From the NCBI GenBank assembly GCA_041665405.1, contig JBAYIZ010000005.1, positions 2,513 through 66,512 on the forward strand: DNA of 64,000 bases, written 5' to 3'. Below are positions 778 through 53,267 of the stretch, one piece after another (within the stretch, counting starts at the first letter, position 1; each line of letters begins with the position of its first letter). Both the position numbers and the translations under genes were made by a program. The notes under the pieces are model-generated. The model saw nothing but the letters and a program-made list of their open reading frames with translations. It had not been told where the DNA came from and searched no databases. The stretch is from Candidatus Magasanikiibacteriota bacterium. GTDB lineage: Bacteria > Patescibacteriota > Patescibacteriia > Magasanikbacterales > GWA2-37-8.

Positions 778-803
778 CTAGATTATAACATAATAGTCAA
801 AAT

Positions 804-860
804 AAAAAAGACGCCTTTTGATAAAAGCGTCTTATTCTGTACAGTGAAACTGGGTAGTTA
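804..860. repeat. cassette-boundary direct repeat R1: terminator-like hairpin AAAGACGCC..GGCGTCTT plus a divergent tail
   Basis: aaaaaagacgccttttgataaaagcgtctt is identical to the hairpin 3' of the tRNA at 8226. The tail tgtacagtgaaactgggtagtt is related to the tails of R2-R4. Confidence 0.6.
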
Positions 861-1286
861 TTAAGACGACCAATTCTCTCTAATGCACCATCTTTCATCT
901 TTTTGTATAACACTAATCTCAAACCAACCTGGCGGGTCAGAAGAATCAAATCGAAATACGAAAGTAGATGGATTACTACTAAATCGTACAAACTTCATCT
1001 CGAGCATCATCTTAGCTATACTATCTCGCCCGATTTCTCCAAAATCTGTATAAAAACGTTGTTCATCATCGGCGCGCTCAACATCACAGAGCACATCCGA
1101 TGGATATTTGAACGGTTCGATTTTTATTGCGTTCGCATACGATATTAACACGGAGCGCGTTTCGACTTTGTTTCGAATATATTTAATAGGATGTTTCATC
1201 CAGATCCAAATTGTCAACATTAATACACCCACCACTATTAACAGTAATAATATCAACTTTGATTTAAAAATTTTGAGATTATTCAT
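861..1286 (-). CDS. hypothetical protein with N-terminal membrane anchor
   Basis: 141-aa ORF with a hydrophobic N-terminal stretch (LILLLLIVVGVLMLTIWIW). No recognised domain. Confidence 0.4.
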   Translation of the reverse strand: MNNLKIFKSKLILLLLIVVGVLMLTIWIWMKHPIKYIRNKVETRSVLISYANAIKIEPFKYPSDVLCDVERADDEQRFYTDFGEIGRDSIAKMMLEMKFVRFSSNPSTFVFRFDSSDPPGWFEISVIQKDERWCIRENWSS

Positions 1287-1363
1287 ATTTGTTTCAGACA
1301 GGACTAATGCAAACTAATGTTTTACAATTTTGTATCAATCGGGTTTAATATAATTATTTATTT

Positions 1364-1609
1364 TTATAATTCATTTTTTATGTCCTCCCATTTTACTCCA
1401 CTAATTTTCTCAATTTCTTTTAACAAATAATACAGAACATCTTTTCTTAATTTTGATTGAATTGTAATTGATTTCTGAGTTTTAATCCATGTAGCTTTGT
1501 AATGACTACCGTCACCACCAGCTGTATCAATTATAAAACCGAGCCTTTGAAGAGCTCGGATAAATTTCCTACGCTTTATTTCTCCGGGTAAATCACTAAG
1601 CGAGGGCAT
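1364..1609 (-). CDS. hicA: HicA-like toxin of a type II toxin-antitoxin pair (mRNA interferase family)
   Basis: FIRALQRLGF...GGDGSHYKAT resembles the HicA GSH core. The track ORF extends to 1675, but the internal ATG at 1609 gives a typical 81-aa HicA and a 14-nt overlap with the upstream partner. Confidence 0.5.
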   Translation of the reverse strand: MPSLSDLPGEIKRRKFIRALQRLGFIIDTAGGDGSHYKATWIKTQKSITIQSKLRKDVLYYLLKEIEKISGVKWEDIKNEL

Positions 1610-1925
1610 ACTCTTCCTGTCTATCAGAAGTTTTGTAAATTTTGGCCTCTTTAGCGAACGAAGATGGTATATCAAAAGAAGTTAAAATTGCATCTTTAAC
1701 ATTTTCATCTAGTGTTTTCAAATCCTTACCAGAAGTTACTATTGAACCATATCTAAAATTGGTGCTAACTGCAACAATCATTCCGTCTTTCCCTTTTTCA
1801 TTTTTAAAATTAATCGGATCGTATAAACGAAAATATTGGTTTAATTCAAATAAACCCCTTGGTACAAATGATTTACCAAATAAAAATTTTATTAACTGAT
1901 CTTGGGCTTTTTTAGTTATAGACAT
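1596..1925 (-). CDS. hicB: HicB-like antitoxin (UPF0150/RNase-H-like fold), tentative
   Basis: 109-aa protein immediately upstream of and overlapping hicA. GMIVAVSTNF-RYGSIVTSGKDLKTLDENVKDAI loosely matches the HicB N-domain pattern. Confidence 0.4.
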   Translation of the reverse strand: MSITKKAQDQLIKFLFGKSFVPRGLFELNQYFRLYDPINFKNEKGKDGMIVAVSTNFRYGSIVTSGKDLKTLDENVKDAILTSFDIPSSFAKEAKIYKTSDRQEEYALA

Positions 1926-1995
1926 ATATTTATCGACTCACTAATATAACAATTTTTTACTAGTAAGTCAAGTATACCATAAACATAAATAATAC

Positions 1996-2170
1996 AAAAG
2001 ACCGCCCGTTGCCTAAATACAGAAACCAATTCTGAACTTAGGCAAGTGCGGGCGGTCGAGTGTCTGACCATATTCCCTTCCTTGTCTGACCTGGCGGTCA
2101 TAGGACGTCCTTTCGGACGGAACGACGGTCAACGTCGCTCTACCCCACCGTATTTCGGAGGATGGGGTGC
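1996..2170 (-). repeat. conserved ~175-nt GC-rich highly structured element, copy 1 (3' UTR of GC-rich ORF 2180..2509)
   Basis: About 90% identical to 7258..7430. On the minus strand it folds into: a hairpin CCCCAUC/GGUGGGG; a hairpin CGACG/CGUCG; a GAAA-tetraloop hairpin UCC-GAAA-GGA; GACC-GCCA-GGUC; GGUC..GACC; and a long terminal hairpin GACCGCCCGCACUUGCCUAA...UUAGGCAACGGGCGGUC followed by UUUU. Confidence 0.6.
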
Positions 2171-2179
2171 TTTTGATTA

Positions 2180-2509
2180 TCAGGCCTTCTTCCTTGGAGG
2201 GAAGATGTATGCGGACTCAGGCGAAAGAAGCCACCGATGATAGGACATCCGCATCGCCTCTGGATTTTGTCGAATTGACAGGGTAGTATCGAACCACTGC
2301 TGATAGGCTCGATTCAAGGCGTCCCCGTCTTTGCGCAACGTAGCGAGCGCAACTTGAGCCTCCTTTCGCCACACCGCTTCCTTCCTTTCTTGTGCTCTTC
2401 TAGGTTCATCCTTGGCGTCGTTGATGAACGGCAAAAACGCTACATACGCCAGGATCCAACAAAGCGCCAAGCCGAGAGTGATAGCACCCATTGCCTCGAG
2501 AATCTCCAC
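2180..2509 (-). CDS. GC-rich small membrane protein, hypothetical (foreign composition)
   Basis: 109-aa ORF with a GGAGG ribosome-binding site and an N-terminal transmembrane helix. Its Ala/Arg/Gly-rich, high-GC codon usage contrasts with the AT-rich flanks. Confidence 0.4.
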   Translation of the reverse strand: MEILEAMGAITLGLALCWILAYVAFLPFINDAKDEPRRAQERKEAVWRKEAQVALATLRKDGDALNRAYQQWFDTTLSIRQNPEAMRMSYHRWLLSPESAYIFPPRKKA

Positions 2510-2735
2510 GATTTCCTCCCTACTTCAGTGCAAAAACAAACAACAAGTTCTGCTGAGACAAACGCAAAGCAAAAAAGTTGTTTACAAAGCCAGTTCGTGT
2601 CTGAAGATTTAATTCTGCAAACATAAACTGGCTTTTGTTTTAGAGGGAATTATTAAAGAACTAATTAATTAGATAGTACTATCTATTATAGTGAGAAAAG
2701 ACAATCCAGTTGTGTATCTCTATTAAAATTTCTTA

Positions 2736-3311
2736 TCAAATATTCTTTAAAATAATATTCAATACATTATCCCAATCCATCCGACTGGTATCAATAGAAA
2801 ATATTGGCATTGCTGATTCACTAAATAATTTTTTAAGATATTTCTGTTGTTCTATATAATAATTAACTCTCTCTTCAAGCGTTCCTACTTTCTTGTGTTT
2901 CCAAGTTGCACCTCGTTGTTTATCTGCCAATTCAATTCGGTTTGATATATAATCATCTTGCATTCTTAATAAAATTGTAATTGGGTCAAAACAATTCAGT
3001 ACCTCATTTTCTAGACCAGAAAAAATGTTTAACTTTGAATTAGTTCTAAAAGCATGAGTGATAAATAATCGTTCGACAATAATGTAGCTGGTTGAAATCT
3101 TTTTAATGTTTTCAATAACATTTTTTAGATACTCTACTGCTTTGAGAGGATCTCTGTTTTCAAACAAGGGAACAGTGGTTTCTTCTTCAGAAACAAAAGT
3201 GATCTGATGTTTTTCTTGAAGATGTGATATCAGGTTGGATATGGTGGTTGTTTTGCCAGATGTTGCTATACCTTCAAAAATGATAAGTTTTGGTTTTGAG
3301 ACATCTTTCAT
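2736..3311 (-). CDS. P-loop NTPase / nucleotide(nucleoside) kinase-like protein
   Basis: Walker A motif IIFEGIATSGKTT near the N-terminus; 191 aa; overlaps the upstream ORF by 4 nt (operon). Confidence 0.5.
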   Translation of the reverse strand: MKDVSKPKLIIFEGIATSGKTTTISNLISHLQEKHQITFVSEEETTVPLFENRDPLKAVEYLKNVIENIKKISTSYIIVERLFITHAFRTNSKLNIFSGLENEVLNCFDPITILLRMQDDYISNRIELADKQRGATWKHKKVGTLEERVNYYIEQQKYLKKLFSESAMPIFSIDTSRMDWDNVLNIILKNI

Positions 3312-3811
3312 AATAATAACTTTTGCACCTTTTCTTCAAAACTTTTGTAATGGTAATGCATTGGAAAAGGAATGACGACACCATTATTTAAAACATTAAA
3401 ACCGTCATCACATAAACGTTTTTCTAATAACTGACAAACTGTCTTTTTGGCCAGCATCAGATTGACTTTTTTGTCACCAATAATACCTTTTAAATCATCC
3501 ACAAAATTCGAATAATTTTTTAATATCAGTTCATCAGCCTCTTTGTCTGGTAATTTGTCTACTGGAATATAAATAGGATCAACTAAAAAATATCCGCTAT
3601 TGGCGAAACAAGTAAGACCGTCGTGTTTAGTGTTAAATTTTTTCCCAAACAAACATTTCATTAATGACCGAAACAGTAATTCACTTGGCCTACCATCTGG
3701 GTTGTAAAAATAACCACCACCCGTAGGAAGAGATTCAAAAATAAAGATCGTTTTAAGCGACTTTGGTAGATATTGATTGCGTAATTTTTTATAGGATGAC
3801 TCTGAAGTCAC
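3308..3811 (-). CDS. hypothetical protein, co-transcribed with the P-loop kinase
   Basis: 167-aa ORF whose stop overlaps the downstream start by ATGA. No recognised motif. Confidence 0.4.
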   Translation of the reverse strand: MTSESSYKKLRNQYLPKSLKTIFIFESLPTGGGYFYNPDGRPSELLFRSLMKCLFGKKFNTKHDGLTCFANSGYFLVDPIYIPVDKLPDKEADELILKNYSNFVDDLKGIIGDKKVNLMLAKKTVCQLLEKRLCDDGFNVLNNGVVIPFPMHYHYKSFEEKVQKLLL

Positions 3812-3835
3812 AAAATTATTTTTAAATAAATATAA

Positions 3836-4099
3836 TTATTTTACTTCCAATTCTTGCATTCTATCATTTAAAACAGAATCTAAATCTTTTATTCCCAATT
3901 GAGAAGCAAGCACGAACGCTCCATAAAAAACATTAGCAATTCGCAGTTCAATATCTTTGTTATTTTTTGAAGCAACCCAAAGTTTAGTCAGCGACTCTTG
4001 AGATCCCAATATACATTCTTCAATATTAATCGGACTATTCTGACGAATAAAATTATCTTGTTTTTGAATGATTTGCAAGTATGAAGTAAGGGTTGTCAT
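3836..4099 (-). CDS. MazG-like nucleotide pyrophosphohydrolase (small all-alpha NTP-PPase)
   Basis: The C-terminal ELRIANVFYGAFVLASQLGIKDLDSVLNDRMQELE matches the MazG/NTP-PPase helix pair (E..ADVL.YL..LA..LGIDLE). The track ORF starts at 4192, but the first 31 codons are AT-rich low-complexity sequence, so ATG 4099 is more plausible. Confidence 0.45.
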   Translation of the reverse strand: MTTLTSYLQIIQKQDNFIRQNSPINIEECILGSQESLTKLWVASKNNKDIELRIANVFYGAFVLASQLGIKDLDSVLNDRMQELEVK

Positions 4100-4219
4100 A
4101 AAATAATCGACATGAATATAATAAATCAAAGTAATATTATCAGATAATATATAAAAACAAAAGACCGCTACCAAGTGCTGATTTACAAACACACTAACAT
4201 ATTTAATAAAAAATGCAAC

Positions 4220-4293
4220 AAAAAAGACGCCTCTTTTAAAAGCGTCCTACATTGTGCAGCCGATCGGGTAAGGTAGCAAACTATTTTTGAGAT
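4220..4293. repeat. cassette-boundary direct repeat R2
   Basis: aaaaaagacgcctcttttaaaagcgtcc hairpin variant followed by tacattgtgcagccgatcgggtaaggtagcaaactatttttgag. Confidence 0.65.
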
Positions 4294-4297
4294 TATT

Positions 4298-5962
4298 TCA
4301 TCTATTATTCTGAGATATTCTTATGAAATTTTGTTTTAATAATTCATTTTTACTCATGTCTACTAATTCAGATAATGACGGATTTCCTTGATACAGAGTC
4401 CATGCATACAATGGTGTATATCCATTCCTCCTCATCCAACCAGAATGAAACTGGCCTCTAGTACGAGTAGGTAGCGATTGCCACTTAGAAAATGCCTCCT
4501 CTAATTCTTGCAAACTGAATTCAACTGAACGTTTCTGGTGCTCTCTCTGATCCTGTTTATAAAAATTCTTCTTCAAATTTTCGTCTTTACTCAAAACCAC
4601 TATATCCTCAATAGACAAACTCTTTTTCCTAGCCCATTCAACCAATCCTTTATACCCATTATGACTAAGCCAACCACGTGAAAATCCTTTCTTGTGATCT
4701 GACGTCCATTTTTTAAAAGCATTCTCTAATTCAGTTAAGGCGGATTCCATGTTTCGAATTATTCCTGGATGATACTCCTGTTTTATAAAACTATCTTTTA
4801 ATTCTTGATTATTACTGTTAACGACCAATTCTGTTAATTTTGGATTTTCACCCCTTTTTGTCCATGCATATAAATTTTCGTAACCATTTTTCCTTAACCA
4901 GGCAATACTAAAATTACCTCTTTCAATTTCTTGACACGTTTTATAAAGTTCAAATGCCTCTTCCAATTCAATGGTAGCGGAATACAAATCACGATCTTTG
5001 CCTTCATATGTTTTAAAACTATCTTTCAATTGTTGATTTTTGCTTTTCGCCACTAATTCTTCAATTGATAGATTAATTCTTTTGCCTTTTGAATCTTTCC
5101 TATATGTCCAAGACGTTAAAGCTATATGATTGATACTTAACCAACTAATATTAAAATCTCCTCTATTCTTTATGGGCAAAGCCAACCACTCCTGAAAAGC
5201 ATTCTCTAACTCTACCAAAGCAGTTTCAGGCGTTCTATTTTTCATCTCAGATATTTCTTTCGAAGATTCTCCAGTTTCAGTCGATTTGGATATTAATAAT
5301 CTAACAATTTCTTGTTTCCACTCATCCGATGATTTATTAAAAATTACCATTGAAACTTTGTCTGAACCCAAAGATTTCAATTGATTTTTTGTATACTCAC
5401 CATACTTTCTCCAATCCTCTTTTTCAACATCATGGACTACAAATGTAGCATTTCCTTCTTCGTTATTTACTAAAACTAACTTCTTTATTCCAGGAATTAC
5501 AAAAACTTTGTAGCTTAACCTCCTCATCATATTGGGTGAATTCACACCATCGTGTACCTCATATTTCAAATCTAGGTCACTGAGAATTTCAATAAGAAAT
5601 CTTGTTCTCGGTAAAATATCTTTCTCTTCTATACCAACTCCACTTCCAGGAATGATTTCCCCTTCATCAGGAGGTAGAATTGTCTCATTTTCTATCACAA
5701 TCAAATCTGGCATTAACAATGGATTCAATTCTTTTTTTACCCTTAATTCTTTTACAAAATTATTTACATCTAAATGCAGGACTGGAGCTTTATTTCGACC
5801 AACGTCAATAATACTGAGGTAATTTATGGCTCCTAACATTTCAGCTATTGTTCTTAGGCTACTATTTGGATTAGACCTAATGAGGGTAAAAATTCTTTGA
5901 CTAATTTCAAAAGATAAAGCCTCTTGAACTATCTCTGAATTTTGTTCATCGTATTGAGACAT
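4298..5962 (-). CDS. large hypothetical protein: N-terminal domain of unknown function plus five tandem ~48-aa C-terminal repeats (helicase-associated-domain-like)
   Basis: The repeats ELENAFQEW..G.FS..WL..NGY..L..W recur five times. ELE(N/E)AF...G.F..GWL resembles the HA-domain consensus. The N-terminal domain has a possible PD-(D/E)xK-like VVHDVEK. Confidence 0.5.
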   Translation of the reverse strand: MSQYDEQNSEIVQEALSFEISQRIFTLIRSNPNSSLRTIAEMLGAINYLSIIDVGRNKAPVLHLDVNNFVKELRVKKELNPLLMPDLIVIENETILPPDEGEIIPGSGVGIEEKDILPRTRFLIEILSDLDLKYEVHDGVNSPNMMRRLSYKVFVIPGIKKLVLVNNEEGNATFVVHDVEKEDWRKYGEYTKNQLKSLGSDKVSMVIFNKSSDEWKQEIVRLLISKSTETGESSKEISEMKNRTPETALVELENAFQEWLALPIKNRGDFNISWLSINHIALTSWTYRKDSKGKRINLSIEELVAKSKNQQLKDSFKTYEGKDRDLYSATIELEEAFELYKTCQEIERGNFSIAWLRKNGYENLYAWTKRGENPKLTELVVNSNNQELKDSFIKQEYHPGIIRNMESALTELENAFKKWTSDHKKGFSRGWLSHNGYKGLVEWARKKSLSIEDIVVLSKDENLKKNFYKQDQREHQKRSVEFSLQELEEAFSKWQSLPTRTRGQFHSGWMRRNGYTPLYAWTLYQGNPSLSELVDMSKNELLKQNFIRISQNNR

Positions 5963-6088
5963 TTTGATGAGGTTAAATATAGAAATATTATATCTGTTTT
6001 ATGTTTAATTGTCTATTTATAAAATAAATTAATGCGCAAAAAAACTACAATTTGAGTGGCAAACTCCATTTCAGCAGTTAATAGAGAT

Positions 6089-6164
6089 AAAAAAGACGCC
6101 TTTTGATAAAAGCGTCTTTACATGTGCAGCCGATCGATTAAGGTGGTAAACTATTTTTGAGAAT
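6089..6164. repeat. cassette-boundary direct repeat R3
   Basis: aaaaaagacgccttttgataaaagcgtctttacatgtgcagccgatcgattaaggtggtaaactatttttgagaat. Confidence 0.65.
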
Positions 6165-6175
6165 TTAAGATAATA

Positions 6176-7108
6176 TTATTTAATATCTTTGCGTTCCAAA
6201 ATATCAAACCCGTCTTTTACCGCATCACACAAAAAATTTTCCAACTGGCTATTGTCTTTTTTAGTTTGAGCTTTATATAAAAAAGTATAATATAAACGCT
6301 TCTGTTGTTGGTGGATAATCGCCGGAGCAAAATTTTCTTTCAATAACATAGCTGTCATAAGCAGACGGCCAACACGTCCATTGCCATCGGAAAATGGATG
6401 AACTTGTTCAAACTGTCTGTGAACATCGGCGGATAACGAAATAATATCACTGGTAGATTTTGAGGCTAAGATTATAATCTCTCCAACCAGTTTTGGCACA
6501 CTCATAAAATTAGCAGTCGCCAGATTCACTCCCAAAATTCTCACGCCATGTTGACGATACAAACCGGCATCAGATTGAATACCGTTCATCAAAATACTAT
6601 GCAATTTCAATACAAAGTTTTCATCAATTTTTTCTTTCTTAAGAATATGACTAAACAAATAATTTAAAGCAGTTTGATGATTCTTTGCTTCCATTTGTTC
6701 AGCCAAACTTTTATTTGGCAACGCTACATTATCAAAAATAACAGCCGCAGTGTCTGGTTCAGTCAAGGTACTACCCTCGATGCTATTACTATGGTAGGTC
6801 AGCTTTAAGATAAGCTGGTCGCGAATATCTGGGTTATTCAAAATCTCCGCTACAATATTTTTATGTTCAGAAGATTTTTTGTTTAGAAATTGTTTTTTGG
6901 CAATCAATTGATTGGATGGAATAACTTTCTGGCCAGTCATTTCCAAAAACAATTCATCGATAGCTATCTGCATTTTTGTTCTCGGGATAGACTTTTCATT
7001 CCACCAATTATTGAAAGCCACAAAAGACACGCCGAGTTTATCGGCCAATTTGGTCTGGGAAAGGCCAGACATCTTTTGAATAGTCTCAAGTTTTTGTTTA
7101 ATTGTCAT
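6176..7108 (-). CDS. Fic-family protein (AMPylase/Fic-Doc fold) with an N-terminal XRE-type HTH
   Basis: Canonical Fic motif HPFSDGNGRVGRLL. The N-terminus MSGLSQTKLADKLGVSFVAFNNWWNEK is an HTH_XRE. Confidence 0.8.
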   Translation of the reverse strand: MTIKQKLETIQKMSGLSQTKLADKLGVSFVAFNNWWNEKSIPRTKMQIAIDELFLEMTGQKVIPSNQLIAKKQFLNKKSSEHKNIVAEILNNPDIRDQLILKLTYHSNSIEGSTLTEPDTAAVIFDNVALPNKSLAEQMEAKNHQTALNYLFSHILKKEKIDENFVLKLHSILMNGIQSDAGLYRQHGVRILGVNLATANFMSVPKLVGEIIILASKSTSDIISLSADVHRQFEQVHPFSDGNGRVGRLLMTAMLLKENFAPAIIHQQQKRLYYTFLYKAQTKKDNSQLENFLCDAVKDGFDILERKDIK

Positions 7109-7170
7109 AATAATGTCATTATATCAAACTTTATAAAGTTTGTCAAATATTGGTATACTTTATAAAGTTA
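7109..7170 (-). promoter_or_regulatory. Fic promoter with a twice-repeated 14-bp palindrome (putative autoregulatory operator)
   Basis: On the minus strand: TTGACA-N17-TATAAT, then 9 nt to the ATG (near-leaderless). The perfect palindrome AACTTTATAAAGTT overlaps the spacer (7126-7143), and a second copy, ACTTTATAAAGT, is at 7157-7168. Confidence 0.5.
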
Positions 7171-7171
7171 T

Positions 7172-7247
7172 AAAAAAGACGCCTTTTGATAAAAGCGTCT
7201 TTATATGTGCAGCCGATCGGGTAAGGTGGCAAACTATTTTAGAGAAT
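7172..7247. repeat. cassette-boundary direct repeat R4
   Basis: aaaaaagacgccttttgataaaagcgtctttatatgtgcagccgatcgggtaaggtggcaaactattttagagaat. Confidence 0.65.
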
Positions 7248-7257
7248 ATTTAAAAAC

Positions 7258-7430
7258 AAAAAACCGCCCGTTGCCTAAATACAGAATTCAATTCTGAACT
7301 TAGGCAAGTGCGGGAGGTCGAGTGTCTGACCAATTCCCTTCCTTGTCTGACCTGGCGGTCATATGACATCCTTTCGGACGGAACGACTCTCAGCGTCGCT
7401 CTTCCCCACCGTATTTCGGAGGATGGGGTG
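7258..7430 (-). repeat. conserved ~175-nt GC-rich structured element, copy 2 (3' UTR of GC-rich ORF 7440..8114)
   Basis: Same hairpin series as copy 1. The differences fall mostly in loops: UUGACC vs CUGAGA in the second hairpin loop. Confidence 0.6.
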
Positions 7431-7439
7431 ATTGGTGGT

Positions 7440-8114
7440 CTAGTCTTCGACCACCTTAAATGGCGACGGCCGGTTACCCATGACAATCGCCGAGAAAGAC
7501 TCAACCGTAACTTGCCCGTTGGGCGAGATCACGGTCAACTTCTCAATGATTCTCAGGGCATCGACCACAGTCAGCCGAAGCCGGCTTCCGTAATCGCCCT
7601 GATAGAGCTCAACCGATGGATGAGCCCGAAACGGTCCGAAGAAATCCGAGCGTGAAAACGAACCGAAGTACGCTTCCACACGCCATTTTCTTTCGAACAG
7701 CACCTGTCCGATCCAGAGCGTGGGGGCGACCGGCCCCCAACCCGAAAGACGCATGATGATGACGGGCTGGTCGCCGGGTTTGGATGTAGCGTATTCGTTT
7801 TGCCTGACACCCACGGAGTACGGAAAGATCTGGCGCACCAGTTTCCCTTCCGCGTCCAGCTCAAACTGAGCTTTGTACCCGCGCACGTTACGCCGCCACC
7901 ACTCCCTCAGCCACCGCGTCCAACCGCCTTCATAGAAGATGCCGACCGACCAGATGGCGAAGATCCACCAAGCCGCCGCCATGGCGATGCCACTCTCCAC
8001 CTTGTAGATCAGTTCAGCGCTAATCCCGATGAGGACAGCGATGAAGACGCACAGGCAGAAAGTGCCGCAGCGCACCGGGGTCTTCGGATCCTGAACCTTA
8101 CTTTCCTTTGACAT
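7440..8114 (-). CDS. GC-rich membrane protein, hypothetical (two TM helices plus ~130-aa soluble domain; possibly bPH-like)
   Basis: 224-aa ORF with a strong GAGGAG ribosome-binding site. TM segments FCLCVFIAVLIGISAELIY and AAAWWIFAIWSVGIFY. High-GC codon usage. It is the sole cargo of the tRNA-proximal cassette. Confidence 0.45.
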   Translation of the reverse strand: MSKESKVQDPKTPVRCGTFCLCVFIAVLIGISAELIYKVESGIAMAAAWWIFAIWSVGIFYEGGWTRWLREWWRRNVRGYKAQFELDAEGKLVRQIFPYSVGVRQNEYATSKPGDQPVIIMRLSGWGPVAPTLWIGQVLFERKWRVEAYFGSFSRSDFFGPFRAHPSVELYQGDYGSRLRLTVVDALRIIEKLTVISPNGQVTVESFSAIVMGNRPSPFKVVED

Positions 8115-8190
8115 GGGTTCTCTCCTCGTCAGATGATTTGACGGGTTAAAAATTATTATACATTCTAAAAAATCATTTGTCTATCAAAAT

Positions 8191-8225
8191 AAAAAAGACG
8201 CCTTTTGATAAAAGCGTCTTTATTG
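8191..8225. repeat. R5: the native copy of the repeat hairpin (tRNA terminator), abutting the tRNA 3' end
   Basis: aaaaaagacgccttttgataaaagcgtctttattgtgca runs directly into the tRNA acceptor stem. Confidence 0.65.
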
Positions 8226-8297
8226 TGCACCCATTAGGAGTCGAACCTAAATTTTCGGCTTCGCAGGCCAATGTCCTATCCATTGAACGATGGGTGC
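8226..8297 (-). tRNA. tRNA, hand-folded as tRNA-Arg (anticodon GCG); anticodon call tentative
   Basis: Reverse complement: GCACCCA-TC-GTTC-AATGGATA-GGAC-A-TTGGC-CTGCGAA-GCCGA-AAAT-TTAGG-TTCGACT-CCTAA-TGGGTGC-A. All four stems pair. U33 and A37 are present. No encoded CCA. Confidence 0.75.
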
Positions 8298-8311
8298 AGG
8301 AACTTTTTCAA

Positions 8312-11871: not shown

Positions 11872-12030
11872 AATTTTCTCTAAAGATTGACGCCTCACAG
11901 ATATGAATTTTCTTGCGCTCAGACTAGCACCGAATTGTGGGTTTTACAGACAGCCATATTTAGTTCTCGGTGCTTCGGACAGTTCGCGCGGCGAAAATTA
12001 ATATCTGTTCGGCTTACTTTATTATATTTT

Positions 12031-12576
12031 ATGAAATTAATCATTGGACTTGGAAATCCAGGAAAAGAATTTGAATATACTCGGCATAATGCTGGGTGGT
12101 TGGCTTTGGACAAATTAATTGAATCTGAAAAATTGACTTCCAAAAAATCTTCCAAATTACAGGCGGAAATTTCGGATTTTAAAGTTGGACGCAACAAAGT
12201 AATTTTGGCCAAGCCACAAACCTTCATGAACAATTCTGGTACTGCAGTCCATACCATGATAAATTATTATCGCCTCACTGCCAAAGATATAGTGGTGGTA
12301 CATGATGATAAAGATATCCCTACAGGTGAAATTCGTGTGCAGACCAACCGTGGGCCAGCTGGACACAATGGGATCAAATCAATTATTGAACAAATCGGCA
12401 CTCAAGATTTTACTCGCATTCGCATTGGCGTCGGTCCAACCCCAGACTCAAAAGAAAAAATCGACGTCATCAGTAATTTTGTCTTAAACAAATTCTCCAA
12501 GGAGGAGATTAAAATCTTACAGACTGCATTGGACAATGCGGTGACTGAGATAAAAAGATTATCAGCCGTTGAATAA
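12031..12576 (+). CDS. pth: peptidyl-tRNA hydrolase
   Basis: MKLIIGLGNPGKEFEYTRHNAGW is the Pth N-terminal signature. The track ORF starts at 11887, but the upstream 48 codons look non-coding. Confidence 0.8.
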   Translation: MKLIIGLGNPGKEFEYTRHNAGWLALDKLIESEKLTSKKSSKLQAEISDFKVGRNKVILAKPQTFMNNSGTAVHTMINYYRLTAKDIVVVHDDKDIPTGEIRVQTNRGPAGHNGIKSIIEQIGTQDFTRIRIGVGPTPDSKEKIDVISNFVLNKFSKEEIKILQTALDNAVTEIKRLSAVE

Positions 12577-34887: not shown

Positions 34888-36108
34888 ATGGCGATTGTAC
34901 TAGGAAAAGAAACAAAAAAAGCCAAGGATAACTTCAACTTCAGCGGACAACCTTTTTCTACAAAATTGGCAAAGAATATTGCTTTGATCAAATCGGTGTC
35001 GGCAGAAGCTAATGCCGATTTAAAAGTATTGGATAAAACAATTGCTCAGGCGATTGTTTTGGTGTGCAATGAAATATTGAACGACAAACATTTGGAACAA
35101 TTTGTAGTCGACCAATATCAAGGTGGTGCCGGGACCTCGATGAATATGAACGCCAACGAAGTGATTACTGGACTAGCGCAAAAATTATTAAAAAATAAAA
35201 TCGCTGTGCATCCTTTGGACCATGTAAACCGTTCACAATCCACCAACGATGTTGTCCCTAGCGCAGCTAAAATTACTGTCCTACAATTATTAGATGACCT
35301 AGATCAAGAATTGGATAGTTATATAAAAATAACCAAAGAAAAAGCGCAACAATTTAAAAATATTAAAAAAAGTGGCCGTACTCACTTACAAGATGCCGTA
35401 CCGATGACGTTGGGACAAGAATTTTCCGCGCACGCTTGCGCAATAGAAAAAGATATTGCGCGATTAAACAAAACTCGTGCCAATCTTTATGAATTAAACT
35501 TAGGCGGGACTGCCATTGGTACAGAAATAAATTGTCCAAAAGGTTTTCGTCAATCGGTAATAAAAAAACTGGCCATTGCTACACACTATCCCCTGCGTTC
35601 CGCTTCAAATTTAATTTATTCTACTCAATATTGCGATCAATTTTTAGAAGTTGGATCAACTCTGACGATTCTGTCTTCAAATTTAATTAAATTTTTAAAT
35701 GATTTGCGCTTATTGGCATCCGGACCAAATACTGGACTAAACGAAATTAATTTTGCTCCTGTACAAAACGGTTCTACCATCATGCCAGGAAAAGTAAATC
35801 CTGTGATGGCCGAAGCTCTCACTCAAATTTGTTTTCAAGTAATTGGTAACTACCAAACAATGTTATTATCCGCTCAAGCGGGACAACTGGAATTAAATGT
35901 AATGGCACCAGTGCTGTATAAAAATCTATTTGAATCGTTGGAACTGATGACCAACGGTGTACACCAATTTTCTAAATTAGGCATGAATACTATTACCGCT
36001 AGTCCAGAAAAATGTAAAAAATGGTTGCAAGATAACACGACCGCTCAAAAAACTAAATTTGCGAATGAAATTGGTTATGATCAGGCCGAAAAAAAGAAAG
36101 GTGGATAA
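34888..36108 (+). CDS. class II fumarate hydratase / aspartate ammonia-lyase family lyase
   Basis: GTSMNMNANEVI and GSTIMPGKVNPVMAEAL (the GSSxMPxKxN signature). 406 aa, about 25 aa shorter at the N-terminus than FumC/AspA. Confidence 0.7.
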   Translation: MAIVLGKETKKAKDNFNFSGQPFSTKLAKNIALIKSVSAEANADLKVLDKTIAQAIVLVCNEILNDKHLEQFVVDQYQGGAGTSMNMNANEVITGLAQKLLKNKIAVHPLDHVNRSQSTNDVVPSAAKITVLQLLDDLDQELDSYIKITKEKAQQFKNIKKSGRTHLQDAVPMTLGQEFSAHACAIEKDIARLNKTRANLYELNLGGTAIGTEINCPKGFRQSVIKKLAIATHYPLRSASNLIYSTQYCDQFLEVGSTLTILSSNLIKFLNDLRLLASGPNTGLNEINFAPVQNGSTIMPGKVNPVMAEALTQICFQVIGNYQTMLLSAQAGQLELNVMAPVLYKNLFESLELMTNGVHQFSKLGMNTITASPEKCKKWLQDNTTAQKTKFANEIGYDQAEKKKGG

Positions 36109-36329
36109 GTATTTTTATATCGAATCTTAGCCAATAACCGGCCATTGACAGCACATCGAAAAAATGGGAGAATATCTTAGATAAAAATATGAATACTCCC
36201 CTAAATTATCACAAAAAGCAACACGAAAAAACCGCAGGGGGAGCATTTTTCATTTTTACAAGTATTTCACAAAACCACCGTTAATCGGTGGTTTTTTATA
36301 GTTCTTTTACAATTTGTTGTTCATTGAAA

Positions 36330-36394
36330 AAGCGAAGTTTGTTCGCACTCTTTAGAATCTTCCTGGATTTTGAAGAGTGCGCACAGCTTCGTTT
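36330..36394 (+). promoter_or_regulatory. 65-nt imperfect hairpin in the leader of the GC-rich UPRT-like gene
   Basis: AAGCGAAGTTTGTTCGCACTCTT...AAGAGTGCGCACAGCTTCGTTT; GGAG ribosome-binding site 11 nt before the ATG. The GC content rises here, so the hairpin probably belongs to the insert. Confidence 0.4.
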
Positions 36395-36445
36395 GATTTC
36401 ACCAACCCACACCGTCGCTGAAGTAGCGATTGGAGATTAGAAGCC

Positions 36446-37267
36446 ATGGCCGAAAAGACTTACATGTCCCTGACTGCAGCCCCCGGAGAGATCCACCACA
36501 TGTACGGCGACAACGTGCACCTGATGCACGACCCGCTGGCCCTGACGTGGCTCGCCCGGCTGTGTCATCCGTCCTGCGTGCAGCCCGAGATCAATCGGCT
36601 CATCACCCTGCTGTACCAAAACCTCGTTCGCGAGGTGATCAACCGCGAGCTCCCGCGGCGGATCGTGCGCTCCGAGACCCGCATGCGCGAGTACACCGAG
36701 CACGGCTACTACGACGGCATCGTCATCGACCCCGACTTCGAGGTGACGACCGTCGACATCATCCGGGCGGGCATGTTGCCTTCGATGGTGTGCTACGACA
36801 GACTCAACGAGATCCTCGACCCCAGCCGCGTCCGCCAAGACCACATCATGATGAGCCGACTGGTCAACGTCGACCAACAGGTCACGGGCGCCGGTCTCTT
36901 CGGCAACAAGATCGCTGGTCCGGTCGCCGGTCGGTTGATCTTGTGCCCGGATCCGATGGGGGCTACTGGTGGTTCCATGGTCGAGGCCGTGCACTTCTAC
37001 ATGAACGAACTGGACGGACCGCCGGAGCGTTTCTGCACGCTGAACCTGATCATCACCCCGGAGTACCTGAAGAAGATCCAGAGCGAGTTCCCCGACGGCC
37101 TCGTGACCGTCTACGCGTACCGCCTGGACCGTGGCTTGTCCGACCCCGACGTGCTGGCCGACATCCCCGGCGCTCAGTGGGACCGCGAACGCGGCCTGAA
37201 CGATCGCCAGTACATCGTGCCGGGCGCCGGCGGCATGGGTGAGATCATGAACAACGCGCTGTCGTGA
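36446..37267 (+). CDS. divergent uracil phosphoribosyltransferase-family protein, GC-rich foreign gene (273 aa, insertions and extended N-terminus)
   Basis: IIRAGML.SMV resembles Upp ILRAGLGM. LILCPDPMGATGGSMVEAV resembles Upp ALIVDPMLATGGS. RQYIVPGAGGMGE resembles Upp GYIIPGLGDAGD. Three long overlapping ORFs on both strands are typical of high-GC coding DNA. Confidence 0.55.
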   Translation: MAEKTYMSLTAAPGEIHHMYGDNVHLMHDPLALTWLARLCHPSCVQPEINRLITLLYQNLVREVINRELPRRIVRSETRMREYTEHGYYDGIVIDPDFEVTTVDIIRAGMLPSMVCYDRLNEILDPSRVRQDHIMMSRLVNVDQQVTGAGLFGNKIAGPVAGRLILCPDPMGATGGSMVEAVHFYMNELDGPPERFCTLNLIITPEYLKKIQSEFPDGLVTVYAYRLDRGLSDPDVLADIPGAQWDRERGLNDRQYIVPGAGGMGEIMNNALS

Positions 37268-37292
37268 TAGACAGCGAAGGAGGACAACGTGT

Positions 37293-37330
37293 CGCCCCTT
37301 CTCCTCCCTTGTCGGGACGGAGAAGGGGCG
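37293..37330 (+). terminator. GC-rich hairpin 3' of the UPRT-like gene (actinomycete-style; no U-tract)
   Basis: CGCCCCTTCTCC...GGAGAAGGGGCG. Confidence 0.35.
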
Positions 37331-37379
37331 GCGCATTCACTTAAATCAAAAAAAAATTAATTGTTTTTTTAATTTATAC

Positions 37380-37964
37380 CTATTTTATTTTCCGTAACGC
37401 CTCCTTGAACAATTGCTCTGTCTTCTTCCCTTTCACCTCAATTTTCTTTATCACCTCCCGCGCCTGCAAAGCAGTATATCCCAAAGTAATCAACCCTTCC
37501 ACCACATCATTCACAATCGCATTATCACTTTCCACATAATCCTTACCAGAATTTTTTTGTTCCTTCGCCAATTTTTCTCGCAACTCCACGATTATTCTCT
37601 CTGCAGTTTTTTTACCAATACCACTCACCTTGGTCAGATACTCCAAATCCCCTCGCCCAATCGCCAAAGCAGTTTCTTCTACACTTCCTAGAGACAACAA
37701 ATGCAACGCTGTCTTTGGACCAACACCCGAAACTGATACAAAATTTTTAAATAATTTTTTCTCCAAATCATTGGCAAACCCAAACAAATCTAGCACATCT
37801 TCACGCACCACCAAATAAGTATCCAAACTAACTTCATTGCCAACCTGGCACACCTTGGACGCCTCTGGACTTACCATCACGCGATAACCAACACCACCAG
37901 CGGTCATAATTACCACTTCCAATCCACTATTAATAACCACTTTCCCATTAATTAGAGCAATCAT
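37380..37964 (-). CDS. ruvA: Holliday-junction branch-migration protein RuvA
   Basis: MIALINGKVV...GGVGYRVMVS N-terminus; HhH motifs GVGPKTALHLL and VSGIGKKTAERI. Confidence 0.8.
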   Translation of the reverse strand: MIALINGKVVINSGLEVVIMTAGGVGYRVMVSPEASKVCQVGNEVSLDTYLVVREDVLDLFGFANDLEKKLFKNFVSVSGVGPKTALHLLSLGSVEETALAIGRGDLEYLTKVSGIGKKTAERIIVELREKLAKEQKNSGKDYVESDNAIVNDVVEGLITLGYTALQAREVIKKIEVKGKKTEQLFKEALRKIK

Positions 37965-38031
37965 ACAAAATATTATAACAACCTTATTTTAACATAAAAA
38001 AACCGCCCCGCAAAGGGCGATTTTAAATATT

Positions 38032-45589: not shown

Positions 45590-45770
45590 ATTAATAAAAA
45601 AAACACGATCATTTCGTGCCAAGAGCCACCGACTGAGTCGGGGCGGTACCATCTTGAGCTTTTACTTAATTGGGCTATAACGGGCCACCCGGAAAGATCT
45701 ACTTTTTGCTAAAATAAGCAAATTTCTACTTTCAGCTCCCCGGTGATAGCCGGGTTGAATGCTTTTATTT
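45590..45770 (-). ncRNA. possible T-box-type leader of ileS (tentative)
   Basis: The minus-strand RNA contains UGGUACCGC (matching the T-box core GGUGGUACCGCG), GC-rich stems in an otherwise AT-rich gap, an AUC triplet in a candidate specifier region (AGUAGAUCUUUC), and a terminator CACGAAAUGAUCGUG+U8 about 22 nt before the ATG. Confidence 0.3.
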
Positions 45771-45930
45771 ACAGAATAATTATATAAAAATAAACGAAAA
45801 AAGTCAAATAAACTAAAAGAACATCAACTAGTGATGTTCTTTTAGAGACGGGCGACTAATTCAAGTCGCCCTTCCCCCCTTTGGTGGGCCGCGTCCAACC
45901 TTGTGGTTCGAACGTGGCCACGTTGACTAT

Positions 45931-46680
45931 CTACGCCCGCATCTCCTGCAGGCGCTTCTCGATCTCGGCCAGACGGACGCGAATCGTCTGGTAATGAGAA
46001 CGCAACTTCTCCATGGTGATGTCGAGCTCTCGAATGACCCCTCGCTCGATCTCAACTTCGGCAGGCGTGATGATCGGGGTCTTCCTCCGCCGCCATTCGC
46101 CATCTTCCAACAACCTGTCGTTCAAGGCAAGCTGGAGACGATAGGCGGCGGCCTCGGTTCGGACATATCGTGGCTCTAGGGCATGCATCTCGTCGACGAG
46201 ATTGCACGCCTCAGCGATCAGTTCGTCCTCTTCGACCGACACGACGTCAGCTTCGTCGGCTACGCGTTCGACTTCGACGTCTGGTGAGTGCTCCGACTTC
46301 TGTTCGACAGTCTCTTCTGCCTTCTTCAGTTGCTGGAAAAACTCCTCCGCCCTCAGCCCTGGTGGAACTATCAGGTGGAACGATGCCCGAGAGTTCCGGT
46401 CAGTGGAAGCCTGAACCCAAACCAAGACAGCTGTGGGTCCTTCTGCCATTCTGATGCTGATGCCAGGCGAAGGTGCCGGTCTGATCTTGGTGACAAACCG
46501 AGCCCTGAACACACCCTCAAACCCGGCGCGTTCAAGAAGACTCGCCATCGCCTTGGCCGATTCAGCAATCCATTGGCCGTTGCCTGCTGGCCTCTTGATT
46601 TCCACTCGAACCTTGCACATGTTGCCTCCTGCAACGTTGCGTACAGACACCCCAAACGACGACCTCCGCCGAAGGGACAT
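45931..46680 (-). CDS. GC-rich hypothetical protein (N-terminal ~100-aa domain, acidic linker, C-terminal coiled coil); foreign composition
   Basis: 249-aa ORF with multiple shadow ORFs. The likely start is an internal Met (MCKVRVEIKRPAGNG). No recognised domain. Confidence 0.4.
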   Translation of the reverse strand: MSLRRRSSFGVSVRNVAGGNMCKVRVEIKRPAGNGQWIAESAKAMASLLERAGFEGVFRARFVTKIRPAPSPGISIRMAEGPTAVLVWVQASTDRNSRASFHLIVPPGLRAEEFFQQLKKAEETVEQKSEHSPDVEVERVADEADVVSVEEDELIAEACNLVDEMHALEPRYVRTEAAAYRLQLALNDRLLEDGEWRRRKTPIITPAEVEIERGVIRELDITMEKLRSHYQTIRVRLAEIEKRLQEMRA

Positions 46681-46720
46681 TAGAACCTACATTAAAAATG
46701 GGGTTTTGTCAATACTCAGT

Positions 46721-52391: not shown

Positions 52392-53117
52392 TTATTTTCC
52401 AATATAACTAATTTCGTCCTCATGCAAACGACGCAAACCAGCGTCGTTTGTCATTTCTTCATAAATATGAGCTACCAACCCAGGTACGCGAGCGGTGATA
52501 AAAATCCCTTTCATCATGTCTGGATCAAAACCCATATCCGCCAATATTGCTCCCATAGCACCGTCAATATTTAATGGTAATTGTTTTGAAGAAATTTTAT
52601 TTAATTCTTTTTGACTATCAACAGCCACTTGGCAGGCTTGTTTAAAAAACCCAGTCTTTTTGGCAATTTTTAGAAGCTCTTCCGCGCGTTCATCTCTCTC
52701 CAATACTGCATGTCCAAATCCAGCCAAACGCACTTTTTTGTCCTTTAGCTCTCCAATGGTCTGAACCAAATTTTTATTTTTTATATTTTTCAAAAAGAAT
52801 TTAGCGGCATTTTCGATTGCGCTACCATGCCTTTCTCCCATCGCTAGAATACCAGCAGTAAGAGCAGTATGCATACTATTTTTGGCTGAGGCCACAATAC
52901 GCGCAGTCATGGCTGAAGCGGTACCAATACCATGATCAATGGCCGCGGTAAGCAGAGCATCCAACATTTTAGTTTCTTTCGCTTTAGGCATTCTCCCCTG
53001 CCAAATTAAAAAAATAGTTTCTGTAAAAGTATTATTTTTAATCAAACCAGACAATTTTTTGCCACGAATAGTTTCTTTACCACTATTAACATTAGTAATT
53101 TTTGTTTCCCATTTCAT
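52392..53117 (-). CDS. citrate-synthase-fold small protein (citryl-CoA-lyase-like / ACL C-terminal-domain-like)
   Basis: LAGFGHAVLERDERA matches the CS-family catalytic GFGH.VY...DPR. 241 aa covers only the C-terminal CS region. Confidence 0.55.
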   Translation of the reverse strand: MKWETKITNVNSGKETIRGKKLSGLIKNNTFTETIFLIWQGRMPKAKETKMLDALLTAAIDHGIGTASAMTARIVASAKNSMHTALTAGILAMGERHGSAIENAAKFFLKNIKNKNLVQTIGELKDKKVRLAGFGHAVLERDERAEELLKIAKKTGFFKQACQVAVDSQKELNKISSKQLPLNIDGAMGAILADMGFDPDMMKGIFITARVPGLVAHIYEEMTNDAGLRRLHEDEISYIGK

Positions 53118-53267
53118 AATATTTTAAAAAAGTATTAAAGCCGATTAAATATTAATTTTCGCAGTGCGAATTGTTTGAAGTGGCGAGAATCAAACAAGGC
53201 TGTCTGCAATAAGATAAATTCGCCACAAGTCTGAGCACAAGAAAATTCATATTTATGAGGCGTCAAA

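Follow-up and report, generated by a model that had tools for sequence, protein, structure and literature searches.

A UPRTase-family gene of myxobacterial type in a Magasanikbacteria genome, probably replaced in situ within an older structured mRNA scaffold

We analyzed a 64,000-nt stretch of DNA from a Candidatus Magasanikiibacteriota bacterium (NCBI GenBank assembly GCA_041665405.1, contig JBAYIZ010000005.1, positions 2,513 to 66,512 of the forward strand; hereafter the window, numbered from its first letter), and describe here an unusually GC-rich gene within it that encodes a long-form member of the uracil phosphoribosyltransferase (UPRTase) family. The window as a whole is 37% GC, and positions ~36368–37371 exceed 52% GC in 150-nt windows, with a core peak of 63%. 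Three long, overlapping open reading frames (ORFs) fill this block, at 36430..37242 (+), 36446..37267 (+), and 36437..37336 (−), and only the 273-aa ORF among them matches a Pfam family. A profile search of the window ORFs identified the flanking genes as a Lyase_1 family gene and ruvA; other ORFs checked around the block gave only weak matches, one NIF3-like and one to an acetyltransferase. An earlier note, made from the sequence alone, had described a ~1-kb high-GC block with three overlapping ORFs on both strands between an AspA/FumC-family gene and ruvA, and a GC scan, the ORF list, and the neighboring genes agree with that description. The evidence presented below is best explained by a pyrimidine-salvage phosphoribosyltransferase (PRTase) whose coding sequence (CDS) probably gave way, at the same locus, to a myxobacterial xenolog, whereas the structured mRNA scaffold around it is older and specific to bacteria of the candidate phyla radiation (CPR).

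The 273-aa product is 100% identical to a protein annotated by NCBI as 'MAG: uracil phosphoribosyltransferase [Candidatus Magasanikbacteria bacterium]', in which MAG denotes a metagenome-assembled genome; the host is therefore an AT-rich bacterium of the CPR (Patescibacteria). It scores 50.8 bits (E = 1.9e-13) with the Pfam UPRTase family PF14681, whose gathering score is 27; residues 29–235 align to profile positions 4–190 of 206, and this was the only Pfam family reported. An AlphaFold (AF2) model built on 62 relatives had a predicted local distance difference test (pLDDT) score of 89.1 and a predicted template-modeling (pTM) score of 0.87. In a Foldseek search of this model against the PDB, the top 27 matches were all UPRTases, and the top 26 of these had template-modeling (TM) scores of 0.76–0.87 on the target and 0.61–0.68 on the query at 19–24% sequence identity. 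PyrR structures were far weaker matches (TM 0.37–0.41 on the query), other PRTases also fell far behind, and, unlike PyrR-type regulatory PRTases, the window protein has no PyrR/Pribosyltran-type domain or fold. Compared to canonical Upp/UPRTase enzymes (Thermotoga maritima 1o5o, Bacillus caldolyticus 1i5e, and Toxoplasma gondii 1bd3), the window protein has the same fold (TM up to 0.87) and keeps the RAG arginine, the DPM.ATGGS phosphoribosyl pyrophosphate (PRPP) loop, and the YIVPG start of the base-binding loop, but it is ~65 residues longer and shares only the 19–24% identity given above. The PRPP loop, DPMGATGGS, comprises residues 169–177 and, like the RAG arginine, aligns to the corresponding motifs of T. 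gondii UPRT. UPRTase-family membership and the RAG, DPMGATGGS, and YIVPGAGGMGE motifs, all asserted in the earlier note, are thus features of the 273-aa ORF.

In an alignment of 62 subfamily members with the window protein as its first row, 46 columns are invariant, and every one of these residues is kept in the window protein. The invariant set includes R107-A-G, Q131-D-H, R138, D169-P-M-G-A-T, S177, and Y256-I-V-P-G-x-G-G-x-G-E, together with H18, Y20, and N269-N270. The N-terminus, previously described as an unmatched stretch of ~60 aa, proved to be a shorter extension of ~22–28 aa, because hidden Markov model (HMM) alignments begin at residues 23–29 and the canonical UPRTase helices of the model begin at about residue 30. 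By comparison with T. gondii UPRT, the other extra length consists of internal insertions and an ~18-aa insertion before YIVPG; alignment with this enzyme and with the 62 subfamily members bore out both the internal insertions and the replacement of GLGDAGD by GAGGMGE that had been noted before. The ratio of nonsynonymous to synonymous divergence (dN/dS) between the window CDS and that of L004, a Myxococcota locus, is 0.13/0.66, or ~0.2, and the protein is therefore a working, non-decaying one. The subfamily is large, with 3,459 clusters at E ≤ 1e-60 to protein P0056, and thousands of its members lie in housekeeping contexts; we found no experimentally characterized member of this ~272-aa group. 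Thus, the window protein is a UPRTase-family enzyme of a distinct ~272-aa subfamily, for which Upp equivalog status is not proven.

Judging from family and gene context, the activity is most likely the conversion of uracil and PRPP to uridine monophosphate (UMP), and the metabolic step would be salvage of uracil, or of a close analogue. The gene context is one of pyrimidine and nucleotide metabolism: in one CPR relative (locus L110, introduced below) the gene sits after pyrD-pyrK-pyrE-pyrF, and a gene for a PF00156 PRTase follows most Myxococcota copies. Three features of the protein speak against uracil as its base. The canonical uracil-binding motif (GLGDAGD; GIGDFGD in T. gondii UPRT) reads GAGGMGE throughout the subfamily, with G263 and E266 invariant, and does not conform to G-[LI]-G-D-x-G-D; a Lys of T. 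gondii UPRT aligns with an invariant His in the subfamily; and the NCBIfam upp equivalog models TIGR01091 and NF001097 were both missed, at 53.2 versus 208.35 bits and 61.4 versus 114 bits, respectively. Given the altered motif and the Lys-to-His change, base specificity could therefore differ, and the ~18-aa insertion lies beside the base-binding loop. These properties would suit a PRPP-dependent PRTase of the same fold that acts on another pyrimidine or a modified base, or that has a mainly regulatory role. We regard this alternative as unlikely in view of the linkage to pyrimidine genes in CPR relatives and the much weaker matches to the PyrR regulator fold; moreover, UPRTases bind uracil largely through backbone atoms, and the motif change need not abolish binding.

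GC-rich copies of the gene also occur at five further loci from four other CPR lineages, on contigs of 36–43% GC. These are L002 (Magasanikbacteria RIFOXYD2_FULL_36, GCA_001784455.1) and its close relative L050; L111, whose protein is 82% identical to that of L050; and L110 and L112, which are 88% identical to each other. Host GC content is ~41% for L110 and 0.27–0.45 in windows flanking the L002 gene, and the contig of L111 is short and begins inside a conserved 23-nt block of the leader. The leader and trailer of the gene are homologous across the window and all five loci, and no such flanks were found at 28 Myxococcota loci or at other places in the window; the homologous flanks therefore imply one origin of the locus. 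Wherever the gene on the downstream side could be seen (the window, L002, and L050), it was ruvA in convergent orientation, and the RuvA proteins of the window and L002 are 77% identical. Upstream, the ORF preceding the gene in L112 and L002 ends with the same C-terminal peptide as the pyrF of L110, and we take the gene to lie directly behind pyrF in L002, L110, and L112. Of 80 loci retrieved in a metagenome scan with a 19-base leader pattern, L050 alone proved genuine, and FYMINK/GARP amino-acid composition was of no use in singling out additional CPR copies from the matches. No pyr genes or second upp gene were detected in the 64-kb window by tblastn with pyr genes and E. coli Upp as queries. 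CPR bacteria as a group have been described as lacking known nucleotide-biosynthesis pathways (PMC12455944). The earlier expectation that such a gene would be unusual in this type of genome does not hold, given that CPR bacteria depend on salvage and that four related lineages carry a copy behind the same flanks; likewise, of the proposed 'isolated insertion', the foreign GC-rich gene stands and the unique event does not, since the slot is filled at the five loci of the other lineages.

The closest relatives of the window protein are from Myxococcota. The best protein match (P0002; Myxococcota MAG GCA_049317445.1) is 78% identical over 100% of the length, and members of this long-form Myxococcota subfamily, such as P0002, share the length, composition, and all invariant residues of the window protein. 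When one genome per species was scanned for donor loci, 27 were retrieved; every one lies in a MAG of 57–72% GC, and in each of these closest loci the GC content of the gene equals that of its flanks. By name, 23 of the 27 are Myxococcota, Myxococcales, or Deltaproteobacteria, two are only 'Proteobacteria', and two are implausibly enterobacterial. The last two, L005 and L012, were deposited as 'uncultured Enterobacteriaceae' and 'Klebsiella pneumoniae' MAGs, lie on contigs of 59–67% GC, and are probably mislabelled records; the sequence flanking L005 is common to the Myxococcota loci L003 and L004. Many isolate names or titles of the donor-type loci point to lake or groundwater metagenomes. 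At most Myxococcota loci a second ORF begins ~10–90 nt past the stop codon, and the one in L001 was assigned to the PF00156 phosphoribosyltransferases (hpt-like in our reading). The earlier note proposed a comparison of compositional signatures; by trinucleotide profile, the four GC-rich blocks of the window are heterogeneous, and that of the UPRTase gene most resembles Myxococcota (r = 0.84). Myxococcota copies have the native composition of their genomes and usually the PF00156 gene behind them, whereas the window gene stands alone in an AT-rich genome between CPR-specific structured untranslated regions. Transfer was from Myxococcota to CPR bacteria, and the horizontal acquisition considered earlier is borne out by a composition equal to that of the donors and by the nesting of the gene inside Myxococcota in the family tree. 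Searches of phage and plasmid collections (tblastn of the protein) and of IMG/VR (profile scan) found nothing related, so no vector was identified.

In neighbor-joining trees with 500 bootstraps, the window protein has P0002 as its sister in 98.6%, no replicate recovers a clade of all CPR proteins, and the L110 and L050 groups are united in 27%. The L050-type proteins are 66–70% identical to many Myxococcota proteins and 60% identical to the window protein; under additive distances, unequal rates alone cannot give this pattern. A homolog search with P0056 gave no closer donor for the L050-type copies, with no protein above 66–70% identity. At the nucleotide level, the window CDS is 80% identical to L004 and 64% identical to L050, evenly along the gene, and the switch from donor-like to CPR-like sequence falls at the stop codon and within a few nucleotides of the ATG. 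GC content at third codon positions (GC3) tells a similar story: it is 0.88 for the window CDS and 0.85–0.89 for donors, 0.79 for L110 and 0.67–0.70 for the L050 group, and 0.30–0.41 for host genes. Polarized third-position changes in L050 and L111 number 26 from GC to AT and none from AT to GC, a count that is biased by the outgroup criterion but clear in direction. Thus, the L050 and L111 copies are ameliorating towards AT, and amelioration of the window copy has hardly begun. Between L050 and L111 the flanks are 88–100% identical while the CDS has a synonymous divergence (dS) of 0.71, and the flanks are therefore under strong constraint. The conserved CPR scaffold formed by the flanks is old; the CDS alone arrived recently.

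These results argue for in-situ replacement of the CDS, the reading that we consider probable. In-situ xenologous gene displacement is a concept of comparative genomics, reportedly treated by Omelchenko et al. in 2003 among others, and the window locus resembles it in that conserved flanks and neighbors surround a CDS of different phylogenetic origin. It departs from the usual case in that the displaced gene was itself foreign, the exchange is confined precisely to the CDS and leaves a structured mRNA scaffold around it, and the incoming gene is still unameliorated in a CPR genome. Several points weigh against this reading. The nearest sampled donor is only 80% identical to the window CDS in nucleotide sequence; a sliding-window search detected no mosaic or recombination breakpoint inside the window CDS; and the trees are neighbor-joining trees on 272 columns, in which the L110 and L050 groups, possibly of separate origin, are united with 27% support. 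An alternative is that a single ancient acquisition descended vertically in CPR bacteria, with the high GC content kept by selection or by slow decay, and with a window CDS that seems myxobacterial merely owing to its slow evolution. The homologous flanks of all CPR copies do point to one founding event, and divergence between the window and L050 is similar for the CDS (64% identity) and the flanks (65–76%). However, the absence of CPR monophyly from every bootstrap, the strong union of the window protein with P0002, and the greater similarity of L050 to many Myxococcota proteins than to the window protein all contradict vertical descent, and the AT-directed flux in L050 and L111 means that GC content is not maintained even though GC3 in the window remains 0.88. 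We therefore judge vertical descent improbable.

The scaffold that brackets the CDS contains a series of structured or conserved elements (Table 1). In the leader, L002/L050 and L110/L112 likewise have a TTGACA in the corresponding position behind the upstream gene. The layout of the candidate leader ORF, which has no Shine-Dalgarno sequence before its 31 codons, is also present in L002/L050, where the conserved parts are the U-run and the terminator, and is absent in L110/L112. The 23-nt block is the best-conserved non-coding stretch in alignments across the five CPR lineages (consensus TTCTTTTA(C/T)AAT.GTTGTTCA). Downstream of it, the 65-nt hairpin of the window has a folding energy of −38.4 kcal/mol (z = −6.7), a stability that 0 of 200 shuffles reached, and the corresponding hairpins have z-scores of −4 to −8 in all five CPR lineages, in keeping with the structured leader proposed in the earlier note. 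In the five-sequence leader alignment, 95.4% of cells pair, compared to 34–50% in slid controls (RNAalifold, pair counts), and six pairs show compensatory changes, a covariation score reached by 0 of 500 shuffles; this covariation rests on five leaders from three deep lineages, and the structure that was tested was derived from the same alignment. The structure contains 17 G·U cells, which would be A·C mismatches on the other strand, and it therefore belongs to the sense strand, i.e., the mRNA. The apical motif AGAAUCU..GGAUUUU occurs once in the window and otherwise at CPR loci only. No Rfam 15 family reached its gathering score for the leader, either in the scan of the whole window at E ≤ 1 or in that of the leader at E ≤ 10; these scans returned only tRNAs and noise, and the focused leader matches were far below gathering score and of mixed, implausible kinds.

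Two other possible interactions of the leader were considered. Pairing of the conserved block with the region of the ribosome-binding site (RBS) holds in some lineages and not in the window, and was dropped. Separately, the invariant leader sequence GTTGTTCAT (36316–36324) and the CDS codons ATGAACAAC (37247–37255), which encode the MNN of EIMNNAL, are exact reverse complements of each other. This complementarity is found in four of five CPR lineages, with one mismatch (AAT) in L112, and may be coincidence or long-range 5′–3′ pairing; its rough chance expectation is 0.04–0.4.

Table 1. Elements of the UPRTase-like gene and its flanks, with positions in the window.
Element	Position	Strand	Remarks
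Promoter-like TTGACA-17 nt-GAGAAT with TG	36145..36173	+	10/12 consensus matches; directly after the upstream Lyase_1 gene
Candidate leader ORF, 31 aa	36189..36284	+	TAA in the loop of the following terminator; U-runs GCAUUUUUCAUUUUUAC before the terminator
Intrinsic-terminator-like hairpin AAAACCACCG-TTAAT-CGGTGGTTTT, then T-run	36271..36295	+	Conserved in L002/L050
Conserved 23-nt block TTCTTTTACAATTTGTTGTTCAT	36302..36324	+	Possible −10 box TACAAT (TATAAT in L110/L112)
Long 5′-leader hairpin, 65 nt	36330..36394	+	Apical AGAAUCU..GGAUUUUG nearly invariant; basal stem covaries
Small GC hairpin just 5′ of the RBS	36414..36430	+	6 pairs, one compensatory; all five lineages
Shine-Dalgarno-like GGAGA, 9 nt before ATG	36432..36436	+	Read from sequence
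CDS, 273 aa, long-form UPRTase-family phosphoribosyltransferase	36446..37267	+	GC 0.63, GC3 0.88; NCBI protein MFA6424083.1
Antisense ORF, 299 aa, spurious (by-product of high GC)	36437..37336	−	From the ORF list
Hairpin CGCUGUC-GUGAUA-GACAGCG with the TGA stop (37265–37267) in its loop	37257..37276	+	−12.8 kcal/mol, z = −3.7
Shine-Dalgarno-like AAGGAGG without a conserved ORF behind it	37277..37283	+	AAGGAG conserved in each of the five CPR trailers
GC-rich 3′ hairpin (transcript end or stabilizer)	37289..37334	+	Then AT-rich host sequence to the ruvA stop at 37380

In the trailer, a hairpin around the stop codon recurs with different stems: CCCUC/GAGGG in L050 and L111, GCCCU/AGGGC in L112, and GUUGAC/GUCAAC in L110. 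Several Myxococcota loci have AAGGAG and then an ATG past the stop codon, and the AAGGAGG of the window may be a relic of the RBS of the donor's downstream, hpt-like gene. The GC-clamp hairpin that the earlier note placed after the stop is present, and the 84-nt stretch that includes it (37262–37345) folds at −44.8 kcal/mol (z = −6.0). The 3′ GC hairpins have z-scores of −5 to −8 in the window, L050, L110, and L112, with stems that differ in sequence, and the hairpin is absent from Myxococcota loci. Because stem lengths differ, the consensus that RNAalifold derived from MAFFT-aligned trailers was poor, and single-sequence folds were used.

Strong hairpins at both ends of a GC-rich unit, content exchange that is precise to the CDS, and the presence of other GC-rich single-gene modules and an array-like region in the same window would also be expected of a mobile cassette, consisting of leader hairpin, CDS, and trailer hairpin, that moves between CPR genomes with its hairpins serving as DNA recombination sites in the manner of integron attC sites or IS200/IS605 ends. 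Such a cassette would not be expected to keep ruvA as its neighbor in the window, L002, and L050, to carry the same cargo at six of six loci, or to have a 5′ structure whose 17 G·U cells make it specific to the sense strand, as expected for RNA. Repeat searches and blastn-short linked neither flank of the block to the other GC-rich modules of the window, in agreement with the earlier statement that it shares no flanking element with the cassette-array modules, and the apical motif is found only once in the window. No recombinase was seen near the array-like region or among the ORFs checked beside the block, the phage, plasmid, and IMG/VR collections held nothing related, and the block does not have the properties of an integron gene cassette, although the attC core-site consensus was judged by eye only. 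We consider the mobile-cassette explanation slightly less probable still than vertical descent.

Two further suggestions of the earlier note were that the protein is a PRTase-type effector or a regulatory pseudo-enzyme, and a divergent PRTase within a foreign-looking island could indeed be an anti-phage defence effector or a decaying pseudo-enzyme. PADLOC, however, gave no match at E ≤ 1 for any of the four GC-rich ORFs of the window, ORF profiles and Rfam revealed no reverse transcriptase, non-coding RNA, or other defence partner gene beside the block, and Rfam found no retron-like RNA there. Retention of 46 of 46 invariant residues and a dN/dS of ~0.2 against the nearest relative oppose a pseudo-enzyme, and the pyrimidine context in CPR bacteria, the PRTase gene that follows in Myxococcota, and the thousands of subfamily members in housekeeping contexts oppose an effector; we hold both to be very unlikely.

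The GC-rich block is real and not an assembly artefact. An ENA contig assembled with MEGAHIT (L113; 73,868 bp) reproduces window positions 35931–56680 at 99.995% identity, with 1 mismatch in 20,750 bases, and a Logan contig (L115; 2,312 bp, run SRR6484324) reproduces positions 35680–37991 at 100%. Both junctions of the block are spanned by each contig, and identical junctions were thus obtained in three assemblies made with different pipelines, with the reservation that L113 and L115 may share the same or related read sets. The extreme contrast in composition, and a conserved C-terminal coding stretch that could in principle supply shared k-mers, might suggest that assembly had inserted reads from a co-occurring Myxococcota genome into a CPR contig, but the agreement of the three assemblies, the joining of the CDS on both sides to a CPR-specific leader and trailer without similarity to Myxococcota loci, and the recurrence of this architecture at five loci of four other CPR lineages in other samples make such a chimera or contamination the least probable explanation of all. 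The two outcomes that the earlier note named as fatal to its interpretation, unsupported junctions and an ordinary actinobacterial Upp present as contamination, were accordingly not found: two further assemblies reproduce both junctions, and the protein belongs to the Myxococcota-type long form, with CPR-specific flanks on either side of its gene. The real 273-aa protein gave no result in an exact look-up, because the gene callers behind the ENA and Logan contigs annotated the antisense 299-aa ORF instead of the UPRTase ORF (L113 19345–20244; L115 656–1555). Antisense miscalling of this kind often befalls GC-rich genes when the genome around them is AT-rich, and hides such genes from protein look-ups.

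In-situ replacement suggests the following course of events. An old transfer from Myxococcota would have created the slot; the orphan AAGGAG would be explained if the 3′ break of this transfer fell just behind the RBS of the next gene in the donor. Around this slot, CPR bacteria would have evolved the scaffold of host-type promoter, 23-nt block, 5′ hairpins, stop-codon hairpin, and 3′ hairpin, which in the window lineage would also include the short leader ORF that runs into a terminator. Later, at least one replacement of the CDS, approximately from start to stop codon, would have brought in a xenolog from a freshwater Myxococcota lineage, so recently that the window CDS is still at the base composition of its donor. 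At least some Patescibacteria are naturally transformable, as is reported for Saccharibacteria. The cell would probably have taken up foreign DNA, which then recombined through the highly conserved ends of the CDS. The 3′ anchor may have been the near-invariant coding stretch for YIVPGAGGMGEIMNNAL; the 5′ joint is less defined.

The scaffold also invites proposals about regulation. Transcription would start at the TTGACA-17-GAGAAT promoter or at the TACAAT of the conserved block, the long 5′ hairpin would serve as a protein-binding, processing, or stabilizing element of the mRNA, and the 3′ hairpins would close and protect the transcript. In E. coli, pyrBI and pyrE are controlled by UTP-sensitive attenuators composed of a leader peptide and a terminator. 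The window leader resembles these in having a short ORF that ends inside a terminator hairpin preceded by U-runs, and differs in that it has no sequence similarity to them, lacks a Shine-Dalgarno sequence, and is found in two of three deep CPR lineages; the likeness is one of resemblance only. By this analogy, the 31-codon ORF and terminator could tentatively be read as a UTP-sensitive attenuator. The unit of promoter-like site, 31-codon ORF, and terminator (36145–36295) could alternatively be a small RNA. PyrR-binding leader hairpins of Gram-positive pyr and upp operons likewise combine a conserved stem-loop and a conserved apex in the leader of a pyrimidine gene, but the apical AGAAUCU..GGAUUUU has no known relation to the PyrR box, the hairpin has no Rfam match, and the window protein is not PyrR-like. 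A bolder and somewhat more doubtful possibility is that Magasanikbacteria keep a structured mRNA 'socket' dedicated to a borrowed gene of pyrimidine salvage, whose CDS is repeatedly overwritten as they take up and recombine DNA of the Myxococcota on or beside which they live, with the 5′ hairpin acting as an undescribed pyrimidine-responsive riboregulator. If this were true, the donor clade and degree of amelioration of each copy would form a running record of host association, and in the window lineage the leader ORF and terminator would join the 5′ hairpin in the riboregulator.

Elsewhere in the window we noted other GC-rich modules and repeats. Five copies of a terminator-like hairpin, AAAAAAGACGCCTTTTGATAAAAGCGTCTT, lie within 800–8300, at 802, 4217, 6087, 7170, and 8184; three to four of them carry a ~45-nt tail (60–94% identical) that resembles a tRNA 3′ fragment, and the copy at 8184 abuts a tRNA-Arg(GCG) gene (8225–8297). 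This array looks like serial insertions beside a tRNA gene. The ORFs between the copies have no Pfam match except for a Fic protein (6179..7108), and no integrase was seen among them. The GC-rich modules at 1991–2517 and 7261–8150 contain unrelated minus-strand ORFs of 109 aa and 224 aa, respectively, and share a ~180-nt, 93–94% identical element 3′ of the ORF (1991–2172, 7253–7433) that ends in a long hairpin; unlike the UPRTase block, these modules thus combine the same flank with different cargo. A fourth GC-rich block, at 45809–46706, contains a minus-strand ORF (45931..46680; GC3 0.66) that is an ORFan, with only a self-match among 5.8 billion clustered proteins and no Pfam or PADLOC match, and the block is reproduced by the independent assemblies L113 and L114. 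Nearby, positions 45590–45800 on the minus strand, upstream of a 980-aa tRNA-synt_1 (ileS-like) gene, are structured and contain a GGUACCGC stretch followed by a terminator-like hairpin; this stretch is reminiscent of a T-box, but Rfam returned no T-box match even at E ≤ 10. Finally, a 129-nt inverted repeat (11887–12015 and 53138–53266; 78% complementary) has arms 41 kb apart, one near the start of ORF 11887..12576 and the other just upstream of ORF 52392..53117, and may reflect paralogous gene starts.

Neither kind of event described here is categorically new, as horizontal transfer into Patescibacteria is documented (PMC12455944) and in-situ displacement is likewise known. What is new is the particular donor–recipient pair, the CDS-precise replacement inside a covarying mRNA scaffold found in five CPR lineages including that of the window, and the uncharacterized UPRTase subfamily with an altered base-binding motif. 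This subfamily, with its thousands of members, deserves an enzymological look, and the hairpin scaffold is a candidate for a new regulatory RNA motif of CPR pyrimidine metabolism. For most CPR lineages neither the host nor the partners in DNA exchange are known, whereas here the donor phylum can be identified as freshwater Myxococcota, which provides a concrete and testable link between Magasanikbacteria and Myxococcota. A recent, unameliorated acquisition and older, decaying CPR copies behind the same flanks together make a natural time series of amelioration, in which a reduced genome keeps a needed function supplied by in-place gene replacement rather than by invention.

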